DNA of 52,936 bases. It comes from a virus. The position numbers and the translations under genes are program-made. Below the pieces are notes generated by a model, which worked only from the letters and a program-made list of their open reading frames with translations, searched no databases and was not told the DNA's origin. This document shows positions 3,842-52,936 of this stretch, in pieces; position 1 is the stretch's first letter, and every line of letters starts with the position of its first letter. Location: the IMG/VR virus record IMGVR_UViG_3300045988_058324; one strand, 5' to 3'.

Positions 3842-3992
3842 GTATAGACAGGTAAGATAATTAAATAAACATATTAGAAAATATAATCCTTGATATAATT
3901 AGGTGTATTCACCCCCGTTATCTTTATGATTTGTTACCTGTCTATACTACAATCATATAGAAGAGTACACCTAATTATATCAAGGATTTTTT
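3842..3992 (+). promoter_or_regulatory. Structured leader (or origin-like element) with two interleaved long inverted repeats, ending in a T-run
   Basis: A 3842-3855 GTATAGACAGGTAA pairs with A' 3934-3947. B 3885-3907 AATCCTTGATATAATTAGGTGTA pairs with B' 3966-3988. Order is A-B-A'-B', and B' runs into T6 (3987-3992). Confidence 0.6.
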
Positions 3993-4799: not shown

Positions 4800-4916
4800 A
4801 TGAATTTAGAGGATATTGAATTATTGCTACTTGTGTTAGCAATAGGAATTATAGCTGTATTAGATATTTTGATTTTGTTTAAGGAGCGAGGTGACAAAGA
4901 TGAAGATGAACAGTAA
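4800..4916 (+). CDS. Small membrane protein (38 aa), missed by the ORF track
   Basis: ATG 7 nt after AAGGAGG. Sequence is MNLEDIELLLLVLAIGIIAVLDILILFKERGDKDEDEQ, a single TM followed by an acidic tail. Confidence 0.45.
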   Translation: MNLEDIELLLLVLAIGIIAVLDILILFKERGDKDEDEQ

Positions 4917-5238
4917 GGACAATTTAACATATCTCAAGAGTTTAACTCTTGACCATATACCCAACGGAAGAAAGAATGCAGTGAAGTGTAAAGATTTAGC
5001 TTATCGGGTAGGGGTTAGCCCAAGGGTTATAAGAAGATTGGTTCAGTATCTAAGAGACGATGGATACCCTATATGCTCAACTACTTTAGATGGATATTGG
5101 TTGGCAGTGTTACCTGAGGAACTCGATTCTACAATTAAACTATTAGAACATCAGCGAGAAACTATAGATGCTACATTGGAATCCTTGAGGGAGACACGAA
5201 ACTATTTAGGAATGGTGGAAGAAACAGATGAATATTAA
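4900..5238 (+). CDS. Winged-helix HTH protein (HTH_11/DeoR-like)
   Basis: CKDLAYRVGVSPRVIRRLVQYLRDDGYPICS. ATG 4900 is preferred to the GTG at 4891 because of spacing from GAGGTG. Confidence 0.55.
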   Translation: MKMNSKDNLTYLKSLTLDHIPNGRKNAVKCKDLAYRVGVSPRVIRRLVQYLRDDGYPICSTTLDGYWLAVLPEELDSTIKLLEHQRETIDATLESLRETRNYLGMVEETDEY

Positions 5239-8359: not shown

Positions 8360-8377
8360 TTTTTTTTAAATTTATTA

Positions 8378-8406
8378 TTTACATATGTATTACAATATGT
8401 TATACT
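8378..8406 (+). promoter_or_regulatory. Sigma-70-type promoter with extended -10 (conserved cassette, subfamily ii)
   Basis: TTTACA, 17 bp ending TGT, TATACT. Preceded by a T/A-rich UP-like tract and followed by the conserved CATAAGTTAAAGAAA. Confidence 0.65.
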
Positions 8407-8464
8407 ATATACATAAGTTAAAGAAATAACAAACAAACACAGAAAGGTTAAAAAGGTGATTAAT

Positions 8465-9965: not shown

Positions 9966-12218
9966 ATGGCTCTTTCATTTGCACGAAAAACAGTTAAAGA
10001 TAAGAATATAATCAACAAGACAAGAAATGCTAAAACAAGGACATCCGTTCGCACAGGAACCAATTTAGCTTCACAAATTCAGACAATGACAATGATTGCT
10101 GAATCTAAATTGTCACATCATAAAGACGATTATATTCTTATCAGAACTGTTGAAGAATTAGAAGAATATAGAAAGGCTATAGCAGATGCCGAAGAATGTG
10201 CTATAGATACAGAAACAACAGGATTGAATCCTCTATTGATTGACTTGGTTGGTGTGTGTTTGTATGTTCCAGGAAAGAAGGCAGCTTATATACCTGTAGG
10301 ACATAAGTCGCACATCACAGGACAGAAGGTAAAGAATCAAATAGAAGTAAAGGATTTAATTGAGTTTTTTAATAAATTAAAAGATATAAAGTGGATATTC
10401 CACAATGCTAAATATGATATAAGAGTGCTTAGACATACATTAGGAATATATCTTAATCCTTATTGGGATACGCAGTTAGGTGCGTGCTGTATAGATGAAA
10501 ATGAAAGTCACAGACTTAAAGACTTGCATTTGAAATACTGTGATAGCACAGACACTGAATCCCTCACATTCGATAAGTTATTCGGAGGAATTACATTTGA
10601 TTTAGTTCCAATAAAGGTTGCTTATTTGTATGCAGCAGGTGATGCTATTAAGACTTATGAACTGTATCAATACCAAAAAGGATTATTGAATAGAAGAGTA
10701 TTATCAGGTCCTTATAATGTGTTCCAGAATATTGAAATGCCATTGATTACAGTCGTGGCTAATATGGAAGACAGAGGAGTATGTTTAGATTCTGAGATAT
10801 GTGAATATTTACACGAAAAATATCATAAGATTAAGGAAGAAAGACAGCAACAAGCAGACGAAGCCATAGCAATGTATAAGGAGCAGATTGATAACTATAA
10901 GATGAAAAATCCTAATCATAAGTTATCCGACCCTATATCATTAACGAGTCCTACACAGTTAGCTATTCTTTTTTATGATATTTTAGGGCTTACAAGTCCT
11001 GATAAGAAATCACCAAGAGGCACAGGCGAGGAAATATTGAAGCATTTTGCTAAAGGTAAAGAAAAGAACTTATGTGAAGCGATATTAGGAATCAGAAATG
11101 TGGATAAACTGCTCAATACTTATATAGACAAGATGCCACAGATTGCTCTTGATGATGGTAGAGTACACGCAAGCTATAATCAATATGGAGCTAAAACTGG
11201 GAGGTTCAGTTCTAGTGACCCTAACTTACAGAATATTCCATCACATAATAAAGAGATTAGAAAGATGTTCAAGGCTCAAGATGGATATGTATTAATAGGT
11301 GCAGATTATAGCCAGCAAGAGCCAATGGTTACAGCTCACTTGTCAAATGATAAGAAAATGCAAGATGCCTTTATTCACGGAAAAGATATATATGCTACAA
11401 TCGCAGGATTAGCTTTTCATAAACCTTACGAAGAATGCTTGGAATTCAGGGAAGATGGAACAGTAAATCCAGCAGGTAAAGAAAGAAGAACACAGGCAAA
11501 AAGCATTGTATTAGGTATCCTATATGGAAGACAGATTCCATCCATTGCCGAACAATTAGGCGTATCAACAAGAGAAGCTCAGGATATATATGATGCTGTA
11601 TTAAGAGCTTTCCCACAATTAGCTAAATTCATTGATGAATCACAAGGAATGGCTAAAGAGTTGGGATATGTGACTACTGCTTGGGGAAGACGCCGACACC
11701 TCAAGGATATGCAGTTAGACCAGTATGAGTTCAGCTATAGTGGGAATGTGACTAACTTTGACCCCTTGGCTTTTGGTAAGAGTGTTTCTGTTGAGGTTCC
11801 TGAAAACGTTAAAAAAAGTTATATTAAACAGCTGGAAAGAGCCTACGGCTGGCAGAAGAAAAATCAAATAATACAGCAGGCTTTATCGCAAGGAATCAAG
11901 ATAAAAGATAATGGTGGATATATAGCACAGGCTGAAAGACAGTGCGTAAATGCTAGAGTACAAGGTTCTGCAGCTGATATGGCAAAGCTGGCAATGATAG
12001 CAATTAATAATGATGAAAAGATGAAGGAATTAGACTTTCATTTATTGATACAAGTACACGACGAAGTCATAGGAGAATGTCCAGAAGAAAATATGAAAGA
12101 AGCAAGCGAAAGGCTTTCATACCTTATGCGAACAGCACCAAGCCATCTAATCAAATTACCATTCAGGTGTGACTGTGAAATTACTCGAAACTGGTATGGT
12201 GAAAGTATAGATTTTTAA
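9966..12218 (+). CDS. polA: Family A (Pol I-type) DNA polymerase with 3'-5' exonuclease domain
   Basis: Exo I AIDTETTGL, Exo II NAKYDIRVL, Exo III YAAGDAIKTYELY. Pol motif A GADYSQQEP, motif B RRTQAKSIVLGILYG, motif C LIQVHDEV. Confidence 0.92.
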   Translation: MALSFARKTVKDKNIINKTRNAKTRTSVRTGTNLASQIQTMTMIAESKLSHHKDDYILIRTVEELEEYRKAIADAEECAIDTETTGLNPLLIDLVGVCLYVPGKKAAYIPVGHKSHITGQKVKNQIEVKDLIEFFNKLKDIKWIFHNAKYDIRVLRHTLGIYLNPYWDTQLGACCIDENESHRLKDLHLKYCDSTDTESLTFDKLFGGITFDLVPIKVAYLYAAGDAIKTYELYQYQKGLLNRRVLSGPYNVFQNIEMPLITVVANMEDRGVCLDSEICEYLHEKYHKIKEERQQQADEAIAMYKEQIDNYKMKNPNHKLSDPISLTSPTQLAILFYDILGLTSPDKKSPRGTGEEILKHFAKGKEKNLCEAILGIRNVDKLLNTYIDKMPQIALDDGRVHASYNQYGAKTGRFSSSDPNLQNIPSHNKEIRKMFKAQDGYVLIGADYSQQEPMVTAHLSNDKKMQDAFIHGKDIYATIAGLAFHKPYEECLEFREDGTVNPAGKERRTQAKSIVLGILYGRQIPSIAEQLGVSTREAQDIYDAVLRAFPQLAKFIDESQGMAKELGYVTTAWGRRRHLKDMQLDQYEFSYSGNVTNFDPLAFGKSVSVEVPENVKKSYIKQLERAYGWQKKNQIIQQALSQGIKIKDNGGYIAQAERQCVNARVQGSAADMAKLAMIAINNDEKMKELDFHLLIQVHDEVIGECPEENMKEASERLSYLMRTAPSHLIKLPFRCDCEITRNWYGESIDF

Positions 12219-12237
12219 TTTTTTTTTAATTTTACTA

Positions 12238-12266
12238 TTTACATATGTATTACAATATGTTATACT
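12238..12266 (+). promoter_or_regulatory. Sigma-70-type promoter with extended -10 (conserved cassette, subfamily ii)
   Basis: TTTACA (12238-12243), 17 bp, TGT-TATACT (12261-12266). Nearly identical to the cassettes at 8378 and 20023. Confidence 0.65.
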
Positions 12267-12302
12267 GTATTCAGAAGTTAAAAAGAAAAGAGGTACAAAG
12301 AT

Positions 12303-12821
12303 ATGAAAATTTATGTGTCAAGAAAAGACGAAACAGTTAAGGTAAAATTAGTAGAGTACAATGAAAGATTTAATACCTATATGGTAGAATTTATCACAGG
12401 CGATAGAAAGGGTAAAACAACTTCTTTTTCAGCTTCTACAATGAAGCGGTGGTGGAAAGTGGTTGATGATTCTGAAGAAGTCATAACTAAAGAAGTTGTT
12501 AAAAAAGCCAAGACAACAAAGTCAACAGATGACATTTTAGATATGGTTGAAGAAATTTTAAAAAATTTGAGTATTGAATTTAAACGTTCTTCAAGATGTA
12601 TAAATGTATATTCAAATGGTGTAAAATTAGCTAGTATTTATAGACGAGTAGCTCGTGTGAGAATCTATATGAAAGTTAGTTTATTTACAAAGTTAGATGT
12701 TGATAGTGCTATATTTAAGTCTTCAATAATTAATGATGAAATTAATTTTTACATTGACGAAGACAACATTGATTTTTTATTAGAAAATCTTAATACTATA
12801 AGTAAGGAGTGTAAACATTAA
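12303..12821 (+). CDS. Hypothetical protein, first gene of the radical-SAM operon
   Basis: ORF track with an AGAGG RBS. No recognisable motif. ATGA-type junction with the next gene. Confidence 0.6.
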   Translation: MKIYVSRKDETVKVKLVEYNERFNTYMVEFITGDRKGKTTSFSASTMKRWWKVVDDSEEVITKEVVKKAKTTKSTDDILDMVEEILKNLSIEFKRSSRCINVYSNGVKLASIYRRVARVRIYMKVSLFTKLDVDSAIFKSSIINDEINFYIDEDNIDFLLENLNTISKECKH

Positions 12822-13960
12822 TGAATAATGACACATATAGTTGCCCAATGTTAATGACACAGCAGTTCAGGTTTTGTCCTAACCCTTTTAGAGTTGATTT
12901 ATATAAAGGTTGTGATTTTGGCTGTTTATATTGTTTTGCAAATAGTAATCAATCTGCAGGTCACGATGGTTTTGCTGTGGCAAAAATCAAAACGATTGAA
13001 AACCTATTTAAAAAAGCGTTTGAAAACTCAGGAACCAGTAATAATCTAACTGTTGAATTATTAAGGCATAAAGTCCCACTACATTGTGGAGGTATGTCTG
13101 ACCCATTTCAAACCAGAGAATGGAATCTTCACTTGACCAAACAGTTAATTGATTTAAGTAACAAGTATGAATATCCGATTTCATTTAGCACTAAGACAGC
13201 ACATTTACCTGATGAATATTTTGAAATATTAAACCCAAAACTTCACGCATTCCAAGTGTCAATTATGGGCTGGGACGATGAATATATTAGGAAATATGAG
13301 ACCAATACACCTACTGCTAAAGAACGCTTGAATTTCGTTAAAAAGTTACGAGATAAAGGATTTTGGTGCAGTATAAGAATTCAACCGTGTATAGACATAG
13401 AGCAGGCAAAAAAACTTGTCATACACGCAGGTAATATTCCTAGTTATATTACTGTTGAGCATTTAAAGATACCGAATGATAATACAGAAATAAAAAATTT
13501 ATTTAGAGAAGAATACCAAAGTAGTAATTTCTATAAATCTACTAATAATATGCGTAATATAGAAATGTATCCTACTGTTAAAGAAGATAATATCAAGATT
13601 CTAAAGGAAATAGCTAATGCTAACGGTGTATTGATTGGTTGTGGTGATAATGATTTACACCACTTATCACAGAGTAGGTGTTGCTGTGGTATAGATTTAG
13701 CAGGAGAAGCCTTCAGCAATTATTTAAAATACAATTTGACTTATATGGTGACAGGTGAATGTGAACCTTCGGAGCTTTGGTGTCCAAAATGTAATTGCAG
13801 GGATATATTTAATTCTCAGGTGCATAAAGGTCAAAAAGAACTTGATTATAAGGATATGGTAAACGAATATCTTAATAAGAATGAAAAATTAGTTTTAAAT
13901 TCTGAACACCCTGAGATTTCAAAGAAAATATTTGGTGTTTCAAGAAAGAAGTTATTTTAA
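12821..13960 (+). CDS. Radical SAM enzyme, SplB / DNA-repair-photolyase (COG1533)-like
   Basis: NPFRVDLYKGCDFGCLYCFA carries the CX3CX2C cluster in the context typical of the spore-photoproduct-lyase-like clade. Extra Cys clusters RCCCG and CPKCNC lie near the C-terminus. Confidence 0.75.
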   Translation: MNNDTYSCPMLMTQQFRFCPNPFRVDLYKGCDFGCLYCFANSNQSAGHDGFAVAKIKTIENLFKKAFENSGTSNNLTVELLRHKVPLHCGGMSDPFQTREWNLHLTKQLIDLSNKYEYPISFSTKTAHLPDEYFEILNPKLHAFQVSIMGWDDEYIRKYETNTPTAKERLNFVKKLRDKGFWCSIRIQPCIDIEQAKKLVIHAGNIPSYITVEHLKIPNDNTEIKNLFREEYQSSNFYKSTNNMRNIEMYPTVKEDNIKILKEIANANGVLIGCGDNDLHHLSQSRCCCGIDLAGEAFSNYLKYNLTYMVTGECEPSELWCPKCNCRDIFNSQVHKGQKELDYKDMVNEYLNKNEKLVLNSEHPEISKKIFGVSRKKLF

Positions 13961-13973
13961 GGGGGTGAATTAG

Positions 13974-14390
13974 ATGTCATTACTTAAAAGTGTAGTAAAG
14001 AAAGATTATATGGAAGGTGACACTAAATATTCTAGAAGTACATCTATACCACAGTATGAGATAAAGGGCGATAAGCCCCTCATTCAGGAATTATATAATA
14101 ATAAAAAGGTAATTGAATTACTAAGGCACATTAAGGAATCAAATGTGTCTGCGGAAGAAAAGCAATTCCTCACTATTGCAGCATATCGTCATTATGTTTT
14201 TAATTATGACAAAATAGCTGAATACTATCCACACGCAAGCAAAGAAATGCAAGAACTTATGGAAGAATCGGCACTTGTAATTATTGATATTGATAATGCA
14301 ATAAAAAATGGATATGTTAAATATAGTAAGCGTATTCAGCAGATTATTGAAGATTCCAAAAAAGCAAAGGAGGAATTTAATGAGAAGTGA
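13974..14390 (+). CDS. Hypothetical protein (138 aa) within the radical-SAM operon
   Basis: ORF track with a GGGGGTG RBS. No catalytic motif recognised. Confidence 0.6.
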   Translation: MSLLKSVVKKDYMEGDTKYSRSTSIPQYEIKGDKPLIQELYNNKKVIELLRHIKESNVSAEEKQFLTIAAYRHYVFNYDKIAEYYPHASKEMQELMEESALVIIDIDNAIKNGYVKYSKRIQQIIEDSKKAKEEFNEK

Positions 14391-15231
14391 TTTTGCCTGT
14401 TTTATCCTTTGCCACGGGAGACCAAATAATACCCCAACATTTGATACTCTACGAAAGTATGGGTACACTGGTGACATATATATAATCTGTGATGACGAGG
14501 ATAAAACATTACAGGAATATAAGAATATATATGGTGATGATATTGTAAAGGTCTTTAATAAATTAGATGTTTTGCAAAAGTTTGACACTATGGACTGCAG
14601 TGAAAATCGTGGATGTGCAGTTTACGCTAGAAATGCGTGTTTTGATATTGCAAAGGATTTAGGGATAAGATATTTTTGTGAGCTAGATGATGATTATAAA
14701 GAATTTCAATTACGATACCCTAATGAGAATAAATTAAAATTAGTTTATCCACGTAGCTTAGATGATGTATTTAGTGCTTATCTAGATTTTTATATAGAAT
14801 CTGGCGTCACAGCATTAGCTATGGCACAAGGTGGAGATTTTATTGGAGGTTTAAATGGCAATGGCTACAAAAAGAGAGTTCACAGAAAATGTATGAATAG
14901 TTGGTTTTGTGATGTCCATAAACGATTTTACTTTAATGGAAGAATGAATGATGATGTAAACACCTATGCATTGCTGGGTAGTAGAGGATACTGTTTTTTA
15001 ACCTTGGTTGATTGTATGATAAATCAGCCAGACACACAGACAGTTAAAGGGGGTATGACTGATATGTACTCTGGTGAAGGCACATATGTAAAATCATTTT
15101 ACACTGTAATGTGCTGTCCATCCTTTGTAAAAGTAAATATTATGGGTGATGGTCATTATAGAATTCATCATAATATAAATCAAAATAACGCCTATCCTAA
15201 GATAATATCAGATATATATAAAAAGAAATAA
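14380..15231 (+). CDS. Putative GT-A-like nucleotide-sugar transferase (function uncertain)
   Basis: ATG 14380 after AAGGAGG (the track start 14308 overlaps the upstream gene). N-terminal FILCHGRP...IYIICDDED strand-acidic pattern and FCELDDDY, a DxD-like motif. Confidence 0.45.
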   Translation: MRSDFACFILCHGRPNNTPTFDTLRKYGYTGDIYIICDDEDKTLQEYKNIYGDDIVKVFNKLDVLQKFDTMDCSENRGCAVYARNACFDIAKDLGIRYFCELDDDYKEFQLRYPNENKLKLVYPRSLDDVFSAYLDFYIESGVTALAMAQGGDFIGGLNGNGYKKRVHRKCMNSWFCDVHKRFYFNGRMNDDVNTYALLGSRGYCFLTLVDCMINQPDTQTVKGGMTDMYSGEGTYVKSFYTVMCCPSFVKVNIMGDGHYRIHHNINQNNAYPKIISDIYKKK

Positions 15232-15260: not shown

Positions 15261-16352
15261 ATGAAATTAGCAACTCAAAGATTTAAAGAAGCAGTAAACA
15301 AAGCAACTAAAGGAGCATCCTTTAATAATTTAATTCCTATAACAGGAATGTTAGGTATTAAATTATCCGATGGAAAGTTGAGATTGCTTACAACAGATAT
15401 GACTAATACAATGTGTATTATCATTGACAAGGTGGCGGGAGACGATATGGACATTACAGTAGATGCAGATAAGTTTGGAAAGTTGATTGCAAAAACAACT
15501 TCTGAAGATATTGACTTATCTGTGAAGGATGATGTACTTTCTGTCAGAGGAAATGGGACTTATAAGATTCCATTGATTTCCGATGAAGATGGTCTTGTAT
15601 CTTTCCCTGATATTAGAAGCAATACATCCGAGACAGAAGATTGGTCAACAGTTAAGTTATCAAGCATAATGCAGGCTTATAATATTAATAAGTCAGCACT
15701 AGCTAAAACCTTAGAGAATCCAGCTCTTACAGGTTATTATTGTGATGATAAGGTAATCACTACAGATGCCAATGTTATTACATTTAATAATTTCAGAATG
15801 TTCACAGAAGAATTTGGTCCATTATTAATTTCAGCTCAACAGATGCAGTTATTAACATTATATAAGGAAGAAGATATTAAGGTTACAGTTGACCAAGAAA
15901 CAATCATATTCGCTACAGAATCACAGGTAGTTGAAGGAAGCCTTATGGAAGGAATTGAAGATTTTCCAGTGGAAGAAATTGGAGCATATTTAGATGTTGC
16001 TTTCACTTCATCTTGTAAGGTGCCTAAGGAATTACTCTTATCCGTATTAGATAGATTATCCTTATTCATAGAACCTTATGATAAGAATGGAGCTTATTTC
16101 ACTTTCGGTAGAAAGGGAATAAATATTCATAGTAAGAAAGATGCATCAACAGAGACTATTAACTATGTTGAAAGTAAGGACTTTGAACCTTTTGTTTGTT
16201 GTGTGGATATCCCAATGTTGAAAGAACAGTTACAGGCGTACCCAGAGGAAACAGTCAAGCTCTGGTATGGAAATGAAAATGCCTTGAAGCTGGAATGTGG
16301 AAAGGTCATTCAGGTCATTGCTCTATTAGAAGATGAAGGTCTTGCCAATTAA
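15261..16352 (+). CDS. dnaN: DNA polymerase III beta-type sliding clamp
   Basis: 363 aa. N-terminal pattern ...IPITGMLGIKLSDGKLRLLTTDMTNTM resembles DnaN (PIL..vll...dg.L.l.aTD). The genome also encodes tau/gamma, delta' and delta homologs. Confidence 0.7.
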   Translation: MKLATQRFKEAVNKATKGASFNNLIPITGMLGIKLSDGKLRLLTTDMTNTMCIIIDKVAGDDMDITVDADKFGKLIAKTTSEDIDLSVKDDVLSVRGNGTYKIPLISDEDGLVSFPDIRSNTSETEDWSTVKLSSIMQAYNINKSALAKTLENPALTGYYCDDKVITTDANVITFNNFRMFTEEFGPLLISAQQMQLLTLYKEEDIKVTVDQETIIFATESQVVEGSLMEGIEDFPVEEIGAYLDVAFTSSCKVPKELLLSVLDRLSLFIEPYDKNGAYFTFGRKGINIHSKKDASTETINYVESKDFEPFVCCVDIPMLKEQLQAYPEETVKLWYGNENALKLECGKVIQVIALLEDEGLAN

Positions 16353-16420: not shown

Positions 16421-16455
16421 ATAGGACCTCATTTTTAATGGGGTCCTATTTTTTA
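16421..16455 (+). terminator. Rho-independent terminator
   Basis: ATAGGACCTC-loop-GGGGTCCTAT (10-bp stem with one G-U) followed by TTTTTT. Confidence 0.8.
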
Positions 16456-16474
16456 ATTTTTTTTAATTTTACTA

Positions 16475-16503
16475 TTTACATATTGTAATACATATGTTAT
16501 AAT
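16475..16503 (+). promoter_or_regulatory. Sigma-70-type promoter (cassette subfamily ii, spacer core inverted)
   Basis: TTTACA, 17 bp, TATAAT. The 20-bp ACATATTGTAATACATATGT (16478-16497) is the exact reverse complement of the segment in the other three copies. Confidence 0.65.
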
Positions 16504-16550
16504 TTATACATAAGTTAAAGAAATACATTATAACATTGGAGGTAATAAAA

Positions 16551-19969: not shown

Positions 19970-20003
19970 AATCTGTAACTCCGAAAAAGTTACAGATTTT
20001 TTA
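19970..20003 (+). terminator. Rho-independent terminator
   Basis: AATCTGTAACT-CCGAAAA-AGTTACAGATT (11-bp perfect stem) followed by TTTTT. Confidence 0.85.
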
Positions 20004-20022
20004 ATTTTTTTAAATTTGTCTA

Positions 20023-20051
20023 TTTACATATGTATTACAATATGTTATACT
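20023..20051 (+). promoter_or_regulatory. Sigma-70-type promoter with extended -10 (conserved cassette, subfamily ii)
   Basis: TTTACA (20023-20028), 17 bp, TGT-TATACT (20046-20051). Confidence 0.65.
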
Positions 20052-20096
20052 GTATTCAGAAGTTAAAGAAAACAAAGATAAATAAAGGAGGAAACA

Positions 20097-24731: not shown

Positions 24732-24763
24732 TTATTAAGAATTTACTTTATTTTATTAAGAAT
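24732..24763. repeat. Direct repeat TTATTAAGAAT x2, 21 bp apart, just upstream of a promoter
   Basis: 24732-24742 and 24753-24763 are identical. The spacing is two helical turns. Confidence 0.5.
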
Positions 24764-24775
24764 CGCATAAAAAGG

Positions 24776-24804
24776 TTTACTTTTTTGTTTATATGTATTA
24801 CAAT
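24776..24804 (+). promoter_or_regulatory. Sigma-70-type promoter (conserved cassette, subfamily i)
   Basis: TTTACT, 17 bp, TACAAT. The downstream leader ...CAGAAGTTAAAAAACAAGGAAAGTTGAGGTAAACA closely matches the leader at 50-91. Confidence 0.6.
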
Positions 24805-24848
24805 ACAATCAGAAGTTAAAAAACAAGGAAAGTTGAGGTAAACATATT

Positions 24849-25262
24849 ATGAGTAAACCAAGTTACAGACAAGATAATGAGCATTTTCGTTTTTACAATG
24901 CTAACCCAAAGAATAAGTTATCAGCAGGTGATTGTGTAGTAAGAGCTATATCATTTGCTAGTGGGTTAGATTGGGATACAGTATATACAGGCTTATGTGA
25001 AATTGGTATGAAGATGAAAATGATGCCTAATGATAGGAAAGTGTTCGATAAGTATTTAGAGGAAATAGGTTTCGTAAAAAGGAAAACACCTAAAAATGCC
25101 TATGGTTGTAGATACACAGTAGAACAGCTTGCAAGACATAATCCTAATATGCTGGCGATATTGAGTACATCTAATCATTTAACCGCTATAAAGGACGGAA
25201 AAGTAGTAGATACTTGGGATTGTGGTTTCAAGTGTGTAGGAAATTATTGGGTGAAGAGATAA
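24849..25262 (+). CDS. Putative papain-like (Cys-His) hydrolase
   Basis: SAGDCVVRAISFA (candidate nucleophile Cys) and NHLTAIKDGKVVDTWD (His...Asp), in the order expected for papain/NlpC-like folds. Function unverified. Confidence 0.4.
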   Translation: MSKPSYRQDNEHFRFYNANPKNKLSAGDCVVRAISFASGLDWDTVYTGLCEIGMKMKMMPNDRKVFDKYLEEIGFVKRKTPKNAYGCRYTVEQLARHNPNMLAILSTSNHLTAIKDGKVVDTWDCGFKCVGNYWVKR

Positions 25263-28164: not shown

Positions 28165-28962
28165 ATGGCGATAGTAGATGACAATTTAATACTAAAACTT
28201 GAAAATTTCAGAACGAAAGTTATTCAGGTGTTGAAAGAAAAAGGCATAACTATAGATGATAACGCAAAGTTAGATGATGCTCTAGTAAAAGCTATTGATA
28301 GTATTAGCACATTACAGGGGTTAGATGACTATATTACGAATGATATTGTTGACTATATTAATCAAAAACTAACGCAATTAGGACAGTATAAATTTTATTA
28401 TATGCCTAGCATTCATAACGTGAGATGTGATGCAGTTATTAATATAGGAAAATACACTCTATATGGTTGTTCGAGTTTAAAACATTTGTACTTTCCAAAC
28501 GTAGTTAGTATAGAAGAACACGTGTTTCACACACTGGGATGTGAAAACCTTATTTTGCCAAATTTAAAGACAATGGGTACAGCTTGCTTTGTGAATACAA
28601 CCACATTAAAACGTTTAATTATTCCTAAATGTGTATCACTAACCCCGAATACCTGTTCTTCAACTGGAATATATTTGTTAGATGCAGGGAATACATCTCT
28701 TATTCCTTCATCATCATCTATGCCGAATTTGACGATATTAGTATTAAGAAATAATGTATTGACTACACTCGAAAATAGAAGTTGTATTCGGTCTATTGAA
28801 GAAATCTACGTCCCACAAGACCTAATTGAATCCTACAAGGTAGCGACAAATTGGGCGACTTATGCCGACAAATTTAAACCATTAGAGGGCAGTAAATATG
28901 AGCCTTTAAATTGGTATGAGGAAGAAGCTTGGTATAAAGAAGAAATGAAAGTATGGGAATAG
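28165..28962 (+). CDS. Leucine-rich-repeat (BspA-type) protein, paralog 1
   Basis: Repeats of the type LKHLYFPNVVSIEEHVF, ENLILPNLKTMGTACF and LKRLIIPKCVSL. Conserved tail ATNWATYADKFKPLEGSKYEPLNWYEEEAWYKEEMKVWE. Confidence 0.65.
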   Translation: MAIVDDNLILKLENFRTKVIQVLKEKGITIDDNAKLDDALVKAIDSISTLQGLDDYITNDIVDYINQKLTQLGQYKFYYMPSIHNVRCDAVINIGKYTLYGCSSLKHLYFPNVVSIEEHVFHTLGCENLILPNLKTMGTACFVNTTTLKRLIIPKCVSLTPNTCSSTGIYLLDAGNTSLIPSSSSMPNLTILVLRNNVLTTLENRSCIRSIEEIYVPQDLIESYKVATNWATYADKFKPLEGSKYEPLNWYEEEAWYKEEMKVWE

Positions 28963-28974: not shown

Positions 28975-29166
28975 ATGCCAACAATAGAAAAGGCAAATAT
29001 AAAGCAATTAATAACCGATGAAATAGAAAGAATGAACGAATACACAGGCAAAAATGACACAAGCGTGCATAACGCTGTTGATAGTTTGATTAATAGCTGT
29101 AATCAAGACCTAATGTATGAAAATGTATTAGGTCAGGAAGGAGAAGCAAATGGCGGTAGTAAATGA
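28975..29166 (+). CDS. Small helical protein (63 aa)
   Basis: ORF track. Sits between the two LRR paralogs in the same position as 27774..27944. Confidence 0.5.
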   Translation: MPTIEKANIKQLITDEIERMNEYTGKNDTSVHNAVDSLINSCNQDLMYENVLGQEGEANGGSK

Positions 29167-29959
29167 CCTGTATATATTACAGTTAGACAGGATAAGAGAA
29201 AAGTTAAGAAATATACTAATGGATAAAGGCATCATTAAAGATAAAGACGCAACTCTGGAAGAATTAGTTGAAGCTGTAAAAATAACAAATGAGAAAAATA
29301 GCTTATCTAATTTACTATCTAACGAATTAGAAAGCATTACAGACGATGAAATTTTAAGGTTACGCCCTTATAGTTTGTATGGTCTTACAACGTTGACAAA
29401 AGCACATTTTGAAAATTTAACGTATATAGCACCATCAACTTTTTATAATTGTACAAGTTTAAAAAATTTATATGCCCCAAACGTAATAGAAATAGATTCA
29501 GGCTCGCCGTATTATCCGTTTAGAAATACACAAATTGAAAACCTGATTTTTCCTAAGGCACAAGTGATAAGCAGTAATGGTTATTATACTTTTCAAACTG
29601 CAAAGTTAAAAAGACTTATAATTCCAAAATTAACAATATTACCAGCCACGCCTTTTGCTAGTACAAATATGTTAGAAGTGCTAGATTCTTCAATAACTGG
29701 GTGGAATAATAAGCAGGTTAATTTAAAAACTTTGATATTTAGAAACACATCAAAGATGCCGTCATTATCATCAACTGATAACTTACAAAATATAGAAGAA
29801 ATATATTGCCTAAACCAATTCGTAGAAGAACTTAAAAAAGCTACCAATTGGTCAGTATATGCTGATAAGATTAAACCTATTGAAGGTAGCAAATACGAAA
29901 ATTTAGAGTGGTATAAAAAAGAAGAATGGTACGCCGAAGAAATGAGCGTATGGGAATAA
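29150..29959 (+). CDS. Leucine-rich-repeat (BspA-type) protein, paralog 2
   Basis: Same architecture as 28165..28962. N-terminus MAVVNDLYILQLDRIREKLRNILMDKGI and tail ATNWSVYADKIKPIEGSKYENLEWYKKEEWYAEEMSVWE. Confidence 0.65.
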   Translation: MAVVNDLYILQLDRIREKLRNILMDKGIIKDKDATLEELVEAVKITNEKNSLSNLLSNELESITDDEILRLRPYSLYGLTTLTKAHFENLTYIAPSTFYNCTSLKNLYAPNVIEIDSGSPYYPFRNTQIENLIFPKAQVISSNGYYTFQTAKLKRLIIPKLTILPATPFASTNMLEVLDSSITGWNNKQVNLKTLIFRNTSKMPSLSSTDNLQNIEEIYCLNQFVEELKKATNWSVYADKIKPIEGSKYENLEWYKKEEWYAEEMSVWE

Positions 29960-30470: not shown

Positions 30471-30499
30471 TTTACATTTTATGCTTTTTTTGTTATATT
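30471..30499 (+). promoter_or_regulatory. Sigma-70-type promoter of the packaging/head operon
   Basis: TTTACA (30471-30476), 17 bp ending TGT, TATATT (30494-30499). Confidence 0.55.
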
Positions 30500-34477: not shown

Positions 34478-36721
34478 ATGATAAGTAGCACGGAACTGAA
34501 CCGAATAGCATATAAGATGGCTCAAGCATTCGAGGAAATAAATGAGGAGTACATTGAGTTGATGGCTAAACACGTCAAGGATATGGGAAGATTATCTGCT
34601 ACGGATATGCATAGATTGGAACAGATGAATAAGATGGATACTAATATAGCCCATATCAATAAGAAGCTGAGACAGCAGTGTAATTTAACAGTGTTACAGC
34701 TTGATAAGCTATACAGAGAAAGTGGCTTATCGTTATATGATGATATGGATGTGTTCTATTCAGCTAAAGGCGTTGAGCAAGTTCCATTTGAGCAAAATAG
34801 ACGTATACAAGAATATATTCAGTCAGTAGATTCACTCACATATGGAACCTTCGAGAATTTATCCCGAACAACAGCAATGTCCGAAAATTATAGGAAAGTT
34901 GTTGATAGAGGTATATATGCAGTTTCCTCAGGAATGGAGAATTATAAGACAGCTATAAGAAAAGCACTGGTCAAAGCAGCAACAGACGGAATGCGTGTGA
35001 AATATGCAAGTGGATATACAAGAAGACTTGACAGTGCTGCTAGGATGAATATATTAAGTGGAGTTAGACAAGTGAATCTTGGAATAAGACAAATCACAGG
35101 AGAACAGTTCGGGGCAGATGGATATGAGATTTCTGCCCACGGACTCTGTGCAGAAGACCACCAACCAATTCAAGGAAAACAATTTAGCAAGAAAGAATTT
35201 AATAAATTGCAGGCTTCTTTAGCCAGACCTATAGGAACATTAAATTGCCAACATACTGCATATCCTATTATACTAGGAGTAAGCCAACCTGCTTATAGTG
35301 ATTCGGAATTGAAGGATATGTTAGATTATTCTAACGAAAAAATAACACTTCCTAATGGTAAGATAGTAAGCAGGTATGAAGCTTCACAGGTGATGCGGAA
35401 TATAGAAACGAATATTAGATATGCTAAGGATTCCTTTATTGCAGGAAAAGCCAGTGGTGATGATGTATTAATGCAGAAAGCCAAAGCGAAGATAAAAAGA
35501 AATCAAGAACAATATAAAAAAGTGTGTGAAGCTTCAGGATTAAAACCTCGTACTGAACGAATGAGTGTATCAGGTTATAGAAATATGAGTATCAAGATAC
35601 CTAAGACTGTTAAGGCACCAGTGAGCAGTAATAGAGTACCAACCATCAAGAATACCTTAACAATGAAAGATATTAAATCAATGAATAGGGATACACTACA
35701 AGCCACAGCAAAGAATATATTCTTGAAGGAGAATGTTACGTTAGGTGAGGAAGAGGCTACTAGAAGATTCAATGCCTTAATTAATTCTAACAGTGACAAC
35801 CAATTACAGAATTATATTCATAAACATCAGGACAACTTGGGTGTAGCTGAAACAATCAAAGAAGCTAAGGAACATCCTGAAACATTAAAGAACTTTAAAG
35901 CATTTAGCACAGAACGAAAAGATAAATGGATGGACGATATAGCTAGTAGACACATTGTGGATATAGATAAAGTTAATTCCAATATTAAGAATGTAAATAA
36001 ACATTTTGGAGATTTTTTAGCTAGTGATGACGCTCAGTTTTGTATGAGAATTGATACAGAAGAAGTTCTACCTAAAATCATTGAGAGTGGTAAATTCAAG
36101 ACACAGTTCGAAACCAACACATCAGGAGGAGCATTAAGCACATCATTGAGGGAGCTGACCAGCAAGAATCTTTTCGGCTGGAAGGATAGACCTACTGATG
36201 CAGGCTTTGAAAAGTATGGCTATTTAAGGGCAGGTTCCTTCAAGGATGAAGCTTTATTAGGTGATGTTGGTGTAAGTCAATATGGAGATGCTAGTATAAC
36301 ATTTAAGAAAAAAAATCTTATGGACAGAACAACTTTAACATTTGGTGATAGTTTGGATGCTGGTGGTGCTGTTGGACAAATCACACCAACTAAAGTGAAT
36401 GATTTTGATGTTAGGCATTCAGCTAGGAAAATGAGTGATTGGGCTACTGTTGATAAGGATTGGCAAAAACTTGATGATAATGTAGCGAATTTCACAAAAA
36501 TGACTAATGTACAGAAAAATGATTTCCTTATGGGAGATGGAATAAGTAACGGTAAAATATCAATGCGTTACACTGAATTACAGTTTCACGGAGACCTTAC
36601 CGTGGATGATATAGATACAATATCCATAGAACAGGATATGTGGGATTACTTGCCTGATTCTTCCAGGAAAAATATACAAAATTTTGTTAAATTAAAGAAT
36701 ATTAAGCTAGAAATCATATAG
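34478..36721 (+). CDS. MuF/SPP1 gp7-like head morphogenesis protein fused to a ~250-aa uncharacterised C-terminal domain
   Basis: The N-terminal ~300 aa have the MuF-like pattern (…GYEISAHGLCAEDHQPIQGKQFS…) directly after the portal. 747 aa in total, far longer than a bare MuF domain. Confidence 0.7.
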   Translation: MISSTELNRIAYKMAQAFEEINEEYIELMAKHVKDMGRLSATDMHRLEQMNKMDTNIAHINKKLRQQCNLTVLQLDKLYRESGLSLYDDMDVFYSAKGVEQVPFEQNRRIQEYIQSVDSLTYGTFENLSRTTAMSENYRKVVDRGIYAVSSGMENYKTAIRKALVKAATDGMRVKYASGYTRRLDSAARMNILSGVRQVNLGIRQITGEQFGADGYEISAHGLCAEDHQPIQGKQFSKKEFNKLQASLARPIGTLNCQHTAYPIILGVSQPAYSDSELKDMLDYSNEKITLPNGKIVSRYEASQVMRNIETNIRYAKDSFIAGKASGDDVLMQKAKAKIKRNQEQYKKVCEASGLKPRTERMSVSGYRNMSIKIPKTVKAPVSSNRVPTIKNTLTMKDIKSMNRDTLQATAKNIFLKENVTLGEEEATRRFNALINSNSDNQLQNYIHKHQDNLGVAETIKEAKEHPETLKNFKAFSTERKDKWMDDIASRHIVDIDKVNSNIKNVNKHFGDFLASDDAQFCMRIDTEEVLPKIIESGKFKTQFETNTSGGALSTSLRELTSKNLFGWKDRPTDAGFEKYGYLRAGSFKDEALLGDVGVSQYGDASITFKKKNLMDRTTLTFGDSLDAGGAVGQITPTKVNDFDVRHSARKMSDWATVDKDWQKLDDNVANFTKMTNVQKNDFLMGDGISNGKISMRYTELQFHGDLTVDDIDTISIEQDMWDYLPDSSRKNIQNFVKLKNIKLEII

Positions 36722-36731
36722 TGCAAAATAA

Positions 36732-36759
36732 AAGAGCCTTTGGTTAGTCAAAGGCTCTT
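36732..36759. terminator. Hairpin terminator shared by convergent genes (U-tract on the minus-strand side)
   Basis: AAGAGCCTTTG-GTTAGT-CAAAGGCTCTT (11-bp perfect stem). On the minus strand it is followed by TTTTATTTTG. Confidence 0.75.
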
Positions 36760-36950
36760 ATTAAGTGTTCAATTCGTTTTTCCTGGCTTTCAGTAACATT
36801 TGGCTCTTTCCAATAACCAGACTTCATCCAACTCTCGGATTTAGGTATATTAGATATAATTCTAGTCTTAGGACGTATTTGGACATTGTATAGTTTATCT
36901 TTTTCTGCAACAATGAAATTTGAATTTCCCATTTGAGCTATAATCTTCAT
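36744..36950 (-). CDS. Moron: only convincing minus-strand gene (68 aa, unknown function)
   Basis: Has its own AGGAGG RBS (complement of 36960-36966), its own extended -10 promoter and its own terminator. Inserted between head morphogenesis and scaffold genes. Confidence 0.7.
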   Translation of the reverse strand: MKIIAQMGNSNFIVAEKDKLYNVQIRPKTRIISNIPKSESWMKSGYWKEPNVTESQEKRIEHLIRAFD

Positions 36951-36980
36951 TTTTTACTTCCTCCTTTATATTTTATTTTT

Positions 36981-37009
36981 ATTGTAACACATATAGTTAA
37001 AAAAAACAA
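36981..37009 (-). promoter_or_regulatory. Minus-strand promoter for the moron
   Basis: On the minus strand: TTGTTT (37009-37004), 17 bp, TGT-TACAAT (36989-36981). Confidence 0.5.
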
Positions 37010-37028
37010 CATATATACTAAATTATTT

Positions 37029-37235
37029 TGTTAATAACTTAAATTTATTTTGTTAATAATGTTAATAACTTTGTTAATAAGTATTTTTATGTTAATAACT
37101 TGCATAAAATGTTAATAACTTTTGTTAATGGTGTTAGTAATGTTAATAGGTTTATTCTTACTTATTAACATTACTAACATTTTTATTAGCTTATTAACAT
37201 TTTACTATTTACAAATGTTAATAATTTGTTATAAT
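37029..37235. repeat. Dense array of TGTTAATAA-type motifs (about 14 copies, both orientations)
   Basis: Direct copies start at 37029, 37051, 37060, 37072, 37090, 37110, 37123, 37132 (TGTTAGTAA), 37141, 37216 and 37227 (variant). Inverted copies lie at 37161-37170, 37171-37179 and 37191-37199. Confidence 0.9.
37208..37235 (+). promoter_or_regulatory. Promoter of the capsid-tail-lysis operon, overlapped by array motifs
   Basis: TTTACA (37208-37213), 16 bp ending TGT, TATAAT (37230-37235). The spacer contains TGTTAATAAT. Confidence 0.55.
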
Positions 37236-37299
37236 AGTAACGTAAATAAAATCCAGAGCGAAGAAAATTCGCTATATAAGATATTTTAGGAGGCATACA

Positions 37300-37929
37300 A
37301 TGAAAAATATTTACAGCATTTTGGAACAGTTTGGTTTATCAATTCCAGAAGATAAAAAGGAAGAATTTGATAAATTAGTTTTAGAGAATTATAAGACTAT
37401 TGCCGATTATAACCGCTTGGAGAATAAGGTATCTAACGTTGAAGAAGAACGTGATACCTATAAAACAAAATATGACAAGGATATTAAGCAGAGGGACACA
37501 GATTTAGCTGATTTAAAAAAGAAACTAAAGGATGCAGACCCTGAGAAGTTGGAAACACTTACTACAGAGCTTGATAATCTCAAGGTTAAGTATGGCAATG
37601 ATAAAAAAGACTGGGAAGACCAGTTAAAGAAACAGAAGTATGAGTTTGCAATTAAAGAAAAAGCCAATGGCTTGAAATTCACAAGTAACACAGCAAAGAA
37701 AGGATTCCTTGCTGATGTGATGGCAGCAGAATTAAAGATGGAAGGTGATGACCTTTTAGGTTTTGATGATTATGTGGCTAAATATAAGGAAGAAGATGCT
37801 GGTGCGTTCGTTAAGGACCCAGACCCAGATACAAAACCTAAGCCACAGTTTTCAGGCAAGCAGGGAAATGCAGGTACAGAACCTGAACCTAAGCCTGAAG
37901 AACATAAACCAAGACCATTAATTTGGTAA
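37300..37929 (+). CDS. Scaffolding protein (GP20-like)
   Basis: Highly charged coiled coil. The N-terminus ILEQFGLSIPEDKKEEFDKLV is typical of Firmicutes phage scaffold proteins. Lies immediately upstream of the capsid gene. Confidence 0.7.
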   Translation: MKNIYSILEQFGLSIPEDKKEEFDKLVLENYKTIADYNRLENKVSNVEEERDTYKTKYDKDIKQRDTDLADLKKKLKDADPEKLETLTTELDNLKVKYGNDKKDWEDQLKKQKYEFAIKEKANGLKFTSNTAKKGFLADVMAAELKMEGDDLLGFDDYVAKYKEEDAGAFVKDPDPDTKPKPQFSGKQGNAGTEPEPKPEEHKPRPLIW

Positions 37930-37975
37930 CTTTTCAATTCAAACTACTATATCAAGAAAGAGAAGGAGAAAGAAA

Positions 37976-38860
37976 ATGGCAGAAACAACAAGAATCACAT
38001 CCTTGGATGTATTATTAGACCCAACAGGTAAGATGCTCTTATCAGAAGCTTATGATGGCGTTCTTGAGAATGTGCAGAAGACTACAATTTCTAGTAAGCT
38101 GAAGAACACAGATTTATCTGGTGACCCAACAGCAGGTACAGTTGAAGCAAAGCGATTTGTAAACGCTACATCTAAAGCCTATGGTACAGCTAGAGGTGCA
38201 AGTGCAGGAGATAAAGTAAAAGGTAAACCAGTTACAATCCCTATTGATACAGATAGAGAATTTGTAGAAGAAATTGAACAGAAAGATGTATCCCTTTTAG
38301 GTGTGGATGGGCTTATTGCTAAGCGTTCAGCTAATCACGCCCTAAGAATGGCTGCAGAGTTAGATTCAAAATTTTTTGAAGTAGCTGCTACAGAAGGAAC
38401 TAAATTCACCCCTACAAAGACAGACATCCAAGATATTGTAGAAGAAGCTATCGTTACTCTTGAAACACTTAAGAATGACTATATTGATGGTGTAGATAGA
38501 AGTTTAATGTCAATTACATTTGACCCTGCTACATACTCACAGATGAGAAGCTTCTTAGACACAAAAGTGAATAACTCAAATGTGGACACATCACAGGAAG
38601 AATTCTTCACATATCACGGAGTAAGATGTTATAGCTCAGTTAGATTACCTATTTCAGTAGCTGGTAAGACAACGACTACAACAAAATTTATTCTTCAGGT
38701 AGATGGTTCAATAGCACAGCCTATTAGAAGTACACCATATGCAGCAGAAAGAATTCCAATGTCAGAAGCAATGGCAGTAGAATTGTTCTTCTACTATGGA
38801 ACTAAAGCCGTAACACCTGAGACAATTCTTGTATATAACACAGAAGTTACAACATCATAA
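37976..38860 (+). CDS. Major capsid protein
   Basis: 294 aa, follows the scaffold, strong GGAGAAAG RBS. Composition and synteny match an SPP1-like head module. Confidence 0.7.
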   Translation: MAETTRITSLDVLLDPTGKMLLSEAYDGVLENVQKTTISSKLKNTDLSGDPTAGTVEAKRFVNATSKAYGTARGASAGDKVKGKPVTIPIDTDREFVEEIEQKDVSLLGVDGLIAKRSANHALRMAAELDSKFFEVAATEGTKFTPTKTDIQDIVEEAIVTLETLKNDYIDGVDRSLMSITFDPATYSQMRSFLDTKVNNSNVDTSQEEFFTYHGVRCYSSVRLPISVAGKTTTTTKFILQVDGSIAQPIRSTPYAAERIPMSEAMAVELFFYYGTKAVTPETILVYNTEVTTS

Positions 38861-49560: not shown

Positions 49561-49654
49561 AACTGTTAGAGTTGTTGTCAGACGTACAAGACGACCACCT
49601 CACCGTTCTGGAGCGACTAATAGAAATAGGAACAGACGGAGGAGAAGAAGATGA
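49544..49654 (+). CDS. Arginine-rich 36-aa peptide (15 Arg), missed by the ORF track
   Basis: ATG after GAAGGAGAGG. MARAIKTVRVVVRRTRRPPHRSGATNRNRNRRRRRR. ATGA overlap with the next gene. The purine-rich 3' end doubles as that gene's RBS. Confidence 0.35.
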   Translation: MARAIKTVRVVVRRTRRPPHRSGATNRNRNRRRRRR

Positions 49655-49851
49655 TTATATCAGATTTCACAGCACCTGAGTTGGACTACTTACGACAGAA
49701 CTGCAACTTCGTGAATCTGGAACGTGACTTATTCGAGATGCGAAGTTCAGGCGAAACACTTGAGACCATAGCTGATAAATTCTGTATATCTATTGATTAT
49801 GCCCGACGCATAAGCCAAAAAGTAAACAAGAAGATTATTAAGGTTCTTTAA
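49651..49851 (+). CDS. Small sigma-70 region-4-like HTH protein (candidate late transcription regulator)
   Basis: LERDLFEMRSSGETLETIADKFCISIDYARRISQKVNKKI follows the region-4 / LuxR-type HTH pattern. Confidence 0.6.
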   Translation: MIISDFTAPELDYLRQNCNFVNLERDLFEMRSSGETLETIADKFCISIDYARRISQKVNKKIIKVL

Positions 49852-49856: not shown

Positions 49857-49886
49857 TACATTTTTACTACATTTTTACTACATTTA
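49857..49886. repeat. 11-bp tandem repeat TACATTTTTAC x2.7
   Basis: 49857-49867 and 49868-49878 are identical, with a partial third unit. Lies immediately before the terminator. Confidence 0.6.
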
Positions 49887-49913
49887 AGACACATTGTATA
49901 ATGTGTCTTTTTT
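49886..49913 (+). terminator. Rho-independent terminator
   Basis: AAGACACATT-GTAT-AATGTGTCTT followed by TTTTTT. Confidence 0.85.
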
Positions 49914-52816: not shown

Positions 52817-52847
52817 AGGGAATTTTATATTCCCTTTATTTTTTTTT
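52815..52847 (+). terminator. Rho-independent terminator at the end of the late accessory module
   Basis: AAAGGGAAT-TTTAT-ATTCCCTTT followed by A and T x9. Confidence 0.85.
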
Positions 52848-52936
52848 GAAAAAACACTTGCATTTTTGTTGTATATGTATTACAATACAATCATAAGATA
52901 AAAAACAAAGAAAGTTGAGGTAAATACTATGACAAA
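52838..52936. repeat. Terminal duplicate of 1..99
   Basis: Identical to bases 1-99, including the promoter and the first 8 nt of the first gene. Confidence 0.9.

Follow-up and report, generated by a model that had tools for sequence, protein, structure and literature searches.

A cluster of DnaA-type boxes at the capsid–tail operon promoter of an uncultured gut phage

Couplings of late gene expression to replication are known from T4 phage, by way of the sliding clamp, and recently from Mu phage, also by way of the clamp. The late promoter of the lactococcal phage TP901-1 is weak and carries direct repeats bound by the phage activator Alt. DnaA boxes are found in oriR of P1 phage, and SPP1 phage has a second origin. 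The datA locus of Escherichia coli consists of five DnaA boxes and an IHF site and promotes the hydrolysis of DnaA-ATP. In Bacillus subtilis, DnaA represses transcription at its box clusters, which in addition buffer the availability of the initiator (PMC2533591, PMC3245932). In the Bacillus phages phi29 and Nf, Spo0A boxes make the course of the lytic programme depend on host physiology (PMC2731898). The only phage DnaA-box arrays found described in the literature are those of T5-like phages, where TTATTAACA and TTATCAACA are the commonest variant boxes (bioRxiv 10.1101/866236); no report was found of a DnaA-box array at a phage late promoter. Here, a dense array of DnaA-type boxes is described at the promoter of the capsid–tail operon in the virus record IMGVR_UViG_3300045988_058324. 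The window—the whole stretch of DNA analysed—is 52,936 nt long, and all coordinates refer to it.

The repeat array and its identity

The array is built from the 9-mer TGTTAATAA, the reverse complement of which, TTATTAACA, is the DnaA box TTATNCACA with a single change of C6 to A. Nine exact copies lie within 196 bp (37029–37224), where about 0.0075 would be expected: seven on the + strand (the six of the distal block in Table 1 and 37216) and two on the − strand (37162–37170 and 37191–37199). Elsewhere in the window, TGTTAATAA occurs twice (8523 and 15849). Shuffled windows hold 2.0 ± 1.4 copies, and a total of 11 was reached in none of 100 shuffles. The array also holds three one-mismatch copies (37132, TGTTAGTAA; 37141, TGTTAATAG; and 37171–37179 on the − strand) and two relics with two mismatches (37123, TGTTAATGG; and 37183–37191, TTATTAGCT). 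Start-to-start spacings are 9, 12, 13, 18, 20, and 22 bp. An inverted repeat is formed by two arms of 20 nt each (37132–37151 and 37160–37179), which are 95% complementary and separated by 8 nt.

The initial annotation of this DNA had reported about 14 copies of a motif rare by chance, the same range of spacings, and an inverted repeat of 17 bp. All of this is borne out by the exact counts, with 12 good copies (nine exact and three with one mismatch) and two weak ones, and with an inverted repeat slightly longer than claimed. Two individual copies were misread: the one at 37227 has three mismatches and is no copy in this phage—relatives carry a true box, TGTGTATAA, there over the −10 element—and the one at 48110 is TGTTAATAT, a one-mismatch match that carries no weight because such matches occur window-wide at chance frequency (61 seen versus 49.7 ± 7 expected). 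That the motif, taken from its other strand, is a DnaA box had gone unnoticed.

Judged by its sequence, the array is a cluster of DnaA-type boxes. The nine TTATTAACA copies of the window are each within one mismatch of TTATNCACA, the mismatch always being at position 6, and relatives contribute perfect TTATCCACA, TTATACACA, TTATTCACA, and TTATGCACA boxes. The same sequences are used at genuine chromosomal origins. In a scan of 185,579 bacterial species genomes, in which three close copies were required and loci were fetched as 8 kb, 77 loci with TGTTAATAA were obtained, 17 of which directly flank dnaA, either upstream of it or in the dnaA–dnaN spacer. These include Bacilli, Clostridia, Kiritimatiellae, Patescibacteria, and Verrucomicrobia metagenome-assembled genomes (MAGs); two Clostridia MAGs feature TGTTAATAAct three times in the dnaA–dnaN spacer next to canonical TTATCCACA boxes. 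Six further loci contain hemE, which marks the alphaproteobacterial origin, within the fetched 8 kb—bringing the loci with dnaA or hemE to 23 of 77. For triplets of TGTTGATAA, dnaA lies within 22 of 120 loci and mostly adjoins the array. In addition, TTATTAACA has been named a putative DnaA box upstream of dnaA in Mycoplasma hominis, M. mobile, and M. arthritidis (PMC2751442).

Cluster strength was assessed as at least four closely clustered boxes with an Ishikawa score A > 0.3, a score derived from B. subtilis, where this published threshold picked eight stable in vivo DnaA sites (PMC2533591). The window array reaches 0.31 with its maximum at 37051 and is the sole site above 0.3 in this genome. 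Other array lineages score 0.27 to 0.68, six of eight being above 0.3, and the array-less lineage L472 scores 0.06. By their use at origins, the literature, their degeneracy in relatives, and their spacing and cluster strength, the TTATTAACA units of the array are taken to be more than a resemblance to the DnaA box. Readings as PhoP-type sites (TTAACA, 11-bp repeats) or Spo0A boxes (TGTCGAA) were discarded, since the arrays border dnaA in different phyla and vary as DnaA boxes do. A comparison with Rfam gave no match near threshold.

Of the bacterial loci with a triplet of TGTTAATAA or TGTTGATAA (L137–L213 and L248–L367), about 70% have neither dnaA nor hemE in the fetched 8 kb, and part of these are probably no more than tandem repeats. 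dnaX (L138), polA (L284, L298), or the gene of a DnaC-like loader (L279) is close to some, and a few are on contigs of archaeal MAGs, archaea not being known to possess DnaA. Three unrelated viral contigs (L094, L117, and L021) hold four to six TGTTAATAA copies. Those of L094 precede the gene of a DnaC-like loader by about 650 bp and may mark a DnaA-box-containing phage origin.

Promoter, hairpin, and conservation in related phages

The capsid–tail promoter matches the consensus at 11 of 12 positions, features the TG element, and is the best promoter match within 36000–38000, as the TTTACA/TATAAT assignment of the initial annotation had it. The arrangement TTTACA-N16/17-TATAAT recurs in all 22 distinct arrays, with a box at the same spacer nucleotides each time. 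The sequence of this spacer box differs by lineage (TGTTAATAA, TGTTGATAA, TGTGGATAA, or TGTTTATAA), its position is constant. Most lineages have a second box, TGTGTATAA, the end of which doubles as the first five bases of the −10 element (TGTGTATAAT); this box has decayed in the window. Boxes of the opposite orientation abut the −35 element, as the box at 37191 does in the window. The scaffold gene is followed by the major capsid gene (37976–38860), the tail genes, and the lysis genes. The promoter of the preceding packaging operon (30471–30499) carries no box.

The convergent boxes of the inverted repeat fold, at the RNA level, into a hairpin of −27 kcal/mol (z = −9.6) with only four G–C pairs in the stem and the tail UUUUUAUUAG. 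Being a stable hairpin with a U-tract downstream of an operon, the element at 37132–37189 is a predicted intrinsic terminator. Analogous hairpins with a T-run are present in almost all array lineages (11 of them) at −11 to −26 kcal/mol, ten lineages other than the window having values of −11 to −21 kcal/mol, and no equivalent was seen in array-less lineages. As the array-less relatives have another, box-free promoter and no terminator, the terminator, boxes, and promoter are gained or lost as one unit.

The comparison rests on 28 related contigs recovered with the array site and the end of the late region in view; the region upstream of the scaffold gene is readable in 27. The array sits at exactly the same junction in 21 of these 27 uncultured gut phages. 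In the remaining six, the genes are separated by no more than about 110 to 150 bp. A census of 21 distinct arrays yields TTATTAACA 60 times, TTATCAACA 57 times, TTATACACA 31 times, TTATCCACA 27 times, TTATAAACA nine times, TTATTCACA five times, and TTATGCACA once. The variants are mixed inside single arrays (L455 and L429); that of L455 combines TGTTAATAA, TGTTGATAA, and TGTGTATAA. Sites of the general form TTATNNACA number 201 in 5.67 kb of arrays versus 22 in 66 kb of coding control—an about 100-fold higher density. In these sites, T, C, or A (and once G) occupies position 5, and A or C, rarely T, occupies position 6. At the remaining seven positions, which the scan itself had set, one-mismatch departures are uncommon (45 versus 201 matching sites). 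Mixed variants that differ at positions 5 and 6 point to the degeneracy of DnaA boxes, unlike the iterons of a phage protein.

Between adjacent boxes of like orientation, the spacing is 11 bp (n = 41) or 12 bp (n = 20) in 61 of 109 cases, with lesser peaks near 20 and 30—a helical phasing compatible with a DnaA oligomer. The number of distal direct boxes differs among close relatives, and the box sequences stay intact while the spacers and the hairpin loop diverge. This refutes simple AT-rich slippage, which the initial annotation had offered as an alternative that relatives lacking the conserved motif would suggest. Its view of the locus as a cooperative protein-binding platform is, on the contrary, supported as a prediction: the sites are phased and tied to the capsid promoter, with conservation in 21 of 27 relatives, 11- to 12-bp spacing, and a fixed spacer site.

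In one relative, L005 (contig 065517), the loop GTAAGAATAAACC is the exact reverse complement of the window loop GGTTTATTCTTAC (37152–37159), which indicates that the inverted box arms recombine. No further arrays are found in the early regions of 15 relatives. In L465 and L468, of the L429-type lineage, a minor secondary cluster of four DnaA-box-like sites of the same orientation spans less than 240 bp (15634–15871) inside a tail-region gene and may be chance. An exact search of viral contigs for two abutting copies led for the most part to 9-bp tandem repeats of no relation, a large share of them from giant-virus bins; the only relatives among them were L098, L114, and L130. A query with a tape-measure fragment returned 80 mostly unrelated siphoviruses and three further array-bearing lineages, and missed its own contig.

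Proposed mechanism and rival explanations

Host DnaA is the best candidate binder and the most economical one, because no phage open reading frame (ORF) resembles DnaA domain IV and neither of the two binders proposed by the initial annotation correlates with the array. A hidden Markov model of DnaA domain IV gave a best E-value of 0.17 against all six frames of the phage, and the only phage match to the DnaA ATPase domain is the helicase loader. Gene content was compared over the late region and part of the early region. The gene at 36744–36950, the first of the two proposed binders, is missing from the array-bearing L002, L003, and L005. The second, at 49651–49851, is present in five array-less relatives (67–70% identity) and absent at its usual place in the array-bearing L467; the array-less versions are even closer to that of the window (67%) than is the version of one array-bearing lineage (52%). 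Its 66-aa product features a weak GerE/LuxR-like helix-turn-helix (HTH), is conserved, and is encoded by the last gene of the late operon, beside a terminator at about 49880–49910; the early promoter element ATGTATTACAAT is a candidate target of this protein. Uniform repeats that co-vary with a cognate phage gene, as in an iteron or operator array, are not what is found: up to six variants are mixed, and the 68-aa and 66-aa candidates are uncorrelated with them. In sum, boxes of the DnaA type, fused to the promoter and conserved in the clade, show no correlation with the candidate phage binders.

The account favoured here, given somewhat better than even credence, is that the cluster, the terminator-like hairpin, and the near-consensus sigma-A promoter of the scaffold, capsid, tail, and lysis operon form one module, which DnaA would repress until it is titrated. 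Since the promoter is near-consensus, no activator should be needed. Boxes in the spacer, over the −10 element, and against the −35 element can only hinder RNA polymerase, and DnaA is therefore proposed to hold the operon off; in B. subtilis, DnaA is reported to be a repressor of transcription for the most part (PMC2533591). Binding, repression, and relief by titration would proceed as follows. Host DnaA would bind the phased boxes cooperatively and, from the spacer, −10, and −35 boxes, block RNA polymerase, keeping the particle genes off early in infection. The hairpin of the convergent boxes would stop read-through from the upstream packaging operon, so that expression of the capsid operon would depend on its own promoter. 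As the phage replisome multiplies the genome, each copy would add 10 to 15 boxes, free DnaA would be titrated away, and the promoter would open; as a side effect, the host origin would be starved of DnaA. More tentatively, and with less than even confidence, a virulent phage devoid of a dedicated late activator may in this way, with the operon opening on most genome copies, obtain both a replication-coupled late switch and a shut-off of host replication, purely in cis via DnaA titration.

Several observations weigh against the DnaA-titration module. All boxes of the window carry A6 and none matches the strict consensus, so that their affinity for a given host DnaA may be low; some abut at a 9-bp spacing, which is atypical and possibly bars simultaneous occupancy. 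Six relatives do without the array, which is hence not essential. As the T-rich flank of each box is TGTTAATAACTT, a hairpin with a T-run arises nearly automatically wherever boxes converge, and the terminator may be a by-product. The loci near hemE could be bound by CtrA (TTAA-N7-TTAA) instead of DnaA, a reading possible for the Rickettsiales loci only. A binder encoded by the phage early region is possible. No bacterial genome was matched when the polymerase and the endolysin were used as queries to find the host.

Among the rival explanations, the array may mainly act as a DnaA sink that halts new rounds of host replication, after the manner of datA in E. coli or the box clusters of B. subtilis, the position at the promoter being secondary. 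The 10 to 15 boxes on each genome speak for it, since this phage brings a complete replisome (DnaB, loader, primase, PolA, clamp, and clamp loader) and its copies would accumulate in number, as do the early initiation upon deletion of six DnaA-box clusters in B. subtilis (PMC3245932) and the disturbed replication cycle caused by multicopy plasmids with dat (cited in PMC2533591). A sink needs neither an invariant spacer box nor a −10 box in lineage after lineage, however, and is considered unlikely as the main role; it is compatible with the promoter role, titration already being part of the favoured explanation. The sites may also belong to a phage-encoded protein—a late regulator or the HTH_36 initiator (4014–4787)—and merely resemble DnaA boxes. 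The phage does encode several HTH proteins (2227–2532, 4014–4787, 4891–5238, and 49651–49851), and the window-type lineage is uniform in TTATTAACA, as a set of iterons would be. Against this, the arrays of relatives mix five to six variants differing only at box positions 5 and 6, arrays of the same 9-mer are found at bacterial origins in several phyla, and both the small candidate proteins and the search for a DnaA domain IV failed to provide a binder, which leaves this explanation with a low probability.

A secondary DnaA-dependent replication origin, maybe activated by transcription from the adjacent promoter, had been suggested in the initial annotation. The part of this idea that stands is the dense DnaA-box cluster, a hallmark of origins, and a phage helicase and loader would be available for recruitment by DnaA. 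The rest does not fit well: no conserved AT-rich unwinding element was seen in the flanks, which were read by eye with no search made for DnaA-trio repeats, and one flank holds the minor-head stop codon (L002, L005) or else an accessory gene plus its promoter, the other the capsid promoter and the 5′ untranslated region (5′-UTR). Among the six relatives lacking the array, the replication module centred on PolA is retained in at least three (contigs 110617, 117181, and 117691). The location of the array is within the structural module, where it is joined to core promoter elements, and the inverted repeat at the initiator-like gene (3885–3988) is a more conventional candidate. An origin at the array is accordingly given very little probability. 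The partition-like site suggested alongside it finds no support: the motif is unlike a parS palindrome, and no ParA or ParB domain appeared among about 70 proteins scanned. Least probable of all, and hardly credible, is an RNA-level or structural element or a neutral expansion, that is, a terminator of the packaging operon with AT-rich slippage repeats. The strong hairpin with its T-run, the differing number of distal boxes among close relatives, and the arm recombination evident from the inverted loop of L005 would all suit it. A terminator needs no 10 to 15 repeats, though, and the conservation of boxes next to diverging spacers and loops, variants that track DnaA degeneracy, the helical phasing of neighbouring boxes, and the invariant position of the spacer box are at odds with it.

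If the DnaA-titration module is real, it would be a cis-only answer to the coupling of late expression with replication that borrows the host initiator, and DnaA-box clusters would be mobile regulatory modules. A multicopy phage genome could silence initiation of the host chromosome merely by carrying boxes. The clade offers about 200 boxes varying only at positions 5 and 6—a specificity set for the DnaA of uncultured low-GC gut Firmicutes. The 200-bp module is a portable fragment that could be tested in B. subtilis or Clostridium, and triplets of TTATTAACA or TTATCAACA may be useful as origin markers in AT-rich genomes.

Genomic surroundings and comparison with known systems

The features at the junction are collected in Table 1. 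The hairpin in the 5′-UTR of the scaffold gene consists of 6 bp with a GAAA(A/G) loop and is followed by the conserved CATTTTAG; it is also found in L368, L457, L459, L460, L461, L462, L472, and L475, with stems that include AGCGAA, GACCA, CCCG, AGTCCA, ATTGTG, and AGTGAT. It is present with or without the array and hence an independent element, which may stabilise the mRNA, be a site of its processing, or bind a protein.

Table 1. Coordinates of the features around the array (positions and strands in the window).
Feature	Position	Strand	Remarks
Hairpin with T-run, putative terminator of the minus-strand gene	36732..36759	−	11-bp stem; tail TTATTTTGCA on the − strand
68-aa ORF	36744..36950	−	No Pfam or PHROG family; accessory insert, outside the array module
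Putative early-type promoter of the minus-strand ORF	36981..37009	−	TTGTTT, 17 nt, TGtTACAAT; resembles the TATATGTATTACAAT promoters at 1–99 and 24756; assigned by reading
Distal block, six perfect boxes (TTATTAACA on the − strand)	37029..37118	−	37029, 37051, 37060, 37072, 37090, 37110; copy number differs among relatives
Three degenerate boxes (TGTTAATGG, TGTTAGTAA, TGTTAATAG on the + strand)	37123..37149	−	5′ arm of the hairpin
Terminator-like element from convergent boxes	37132..37189	+	20- to 22-bp stem (37132–37151 / 37160–37179), 8-nt loop, then TTTTTATTAG
Proximal boxes, opposite orientation	37162..37199	+	TTATTAACA 37162, TTACTAACA 37171, relic TTATTAGCT 37183, TTATTAACA 37191; layout kept in nine close relatives
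Predicted capsid–tail operon promoter	37208..37235	+	−35 TTTACA 37208–13, 16-nt spacer, TG 37227–28, −10 TATAAT 37230–35
Candidate operator box in the promoter spacer (TGTTAATAA on the + strand)	37216..37224	−	Spacer nt 3–11; position invariant in every array-bearing lineage
5′-UTR hairpin AGCGAA-gaaaa-TTCGCT, scaffold-gene leader	37257..37273	+	5/6 pairs with compensatory changes across 11 lineages
Scaffolding protein gene, first in the operon	37300..37929	+	Phage_scaffold, phrog_194

The 68-aa ORF is the only plausible minus-strand gene of the window, as the initial annotation had recognised, and is found in L001, L004, L006, and L114 only. The tail of its terminator is not T-rich on the + strand, where it should be a weak terminator. 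The adjoining minor head protein (34478–36721) has 747 aa; residues 1–350 match Phage_min_cap2, and a C-terminal extension of about 380 aa has a weak match to DUF3626. In L002 and L005, the protein is 367 to 370 aa long. The extension and the 68-aa gene co-occur in most relatives, the exception being L003 with a 708-aa protein and no minus-strand gene, and L012 and L013 carry a different minus-strand gene of 131 aa at the same spot. The junction of minor head protein and array is a hotspot for accessory inserts.

Bases 1–99 repeat exactly at 52838–52936 (assembly overlap), and the contig is therefore a closed circle of 52,837 bp. The G+C content is about 33%, and with a single exception the real genes are on the + strand. 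The early half encodes an SNF2 helicase, an HTH_36 initiator-like protein, a DnaC-like loader, DnaB, primase, PolA, a beta clamp, three clamp-loader subunits, RecA, and a tRNA-Gln gene; no integrase was seen in the window. The gene order of the late half is terS, terL, portal, minor head protein, array, scaffold, major capsid, tail, lysis. A 26-bp inverted repeat (3885–3910 and 3963–3988; 96% complementary, 52 nt apart) lies directly upstream of the HTH_36 initiator-like gene; of the candidate replication origins in this phage, it is the most conventional. Among cultured phages, the closest are Clostridium phage phiCTP1 (PolA 45%) and Streptococcus phage Dp-1, with PolA identities of 42–45%; the first 50 kb of phiCTP1 hold no box cluster. 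A DNA search of the array region against known phages gave no match, the capsid protein has no relative among deposited phages, and endolysin relatives occur only in other IMG/VR records. The phage clade is uncultured. Promoters, ribosome-binding sites, and the nearest relatives make a Firmicute host likely.

Four conserved early promoter cassettes (8346–8435, 12206–12295, 16443–16532, and 19991–20080) consist of an A/T-tract, TTTACA, TATGTATTACAATATGT, and TATACT, the spacer element of the 16443 cassette being reversed. A second conserved cassette family (1–99 and 24756–24854) features TTGCAT or TTTACT followed by TATATGTATTACAAT. The element in common, ATGTATTACAAT, resembles an operator or a promoter signal specific to the phage; it is also present in the promoter of the L012 minus-strand gene and, in altered form, at 36981–37009. 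A radical-SAM protein (12821–13960) and a TET-associated glycosyltransferase (14308–15231; PF20691, E = 8e-32) suggest hypermodified cytosines in the phage DNA; as a speculation, the few C/G positions of the window boxes might keep them readable by a host protein. Two BspA-type leucine-rich-repeat proteins (28165–28962 and 29150–29959) are encoded just before the packaging genes; they are unusual siphovirus cargo and may be an adhesin or host-interaction factor.

Compared with known systems, the array is akin to the clusters and DnaA-repressed promoters of B. subtilis (dnaA promoter/oriC1, ywlC, yydA, and thdF), which likewise feature at least four close boxes within one mismatch of TTATNCACA (PMC2533591, PMC3245932). 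As there, the boxes are intergenic and at a sigma-A promoter, and the window passes A > 0.3. Unlike them, the phage array precedes the capsid–tail operon of a virulent-looking phage, its window boxes all have C6 changed to A, and its copy number rises during infection, in contrast to that of chromosomal clusters. With datA, the array shares the character of a non-origin DnaA-box cluster, which in E. coli leaves less active initiator available. No promoter core adjoins datA in fused form, and datA resides in E. coli, whereas a Firmicute is the likely host here.

Among phages, the Spo0A boxes of phi29 and Nf are an analogy, as sites of a host master regulator embedded in lytic-phage promoters (PMC2731898). 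The regulator proposed here would be DnaA instead of Spo0A, the target is a structural operon instead of early promoters and replication, and the sites are more numerous. T5-like phages share DnaA and variant boxes, including TTATCAACA and TTATTAACA, in pairs or inverted repeats in a non-coding region (bioRxiv 10.1101/866236). In T5, a phage of Gram-negative hosts, however, eight boxes lie in the terminal-repeat region (injection-stop) and not at a late promoter, and arrest of DNA entry has been proposed. P1 oriR and oriC have in common with the array a phased DnaA-box cluster; the array, unlike them, shows no adjacent unwinding element and no initiator iterons, lies away from the replication genes, and is dispensable in sister phages. 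TP901-1 is likewise a Firmicute siphovirus with direct repeats upstream of a structural-gene promoter. The difference from TP901-1 lies in the promoter, which is near-consensus here, and in the sites, which overlap the promoter core and match the box of a host protein.

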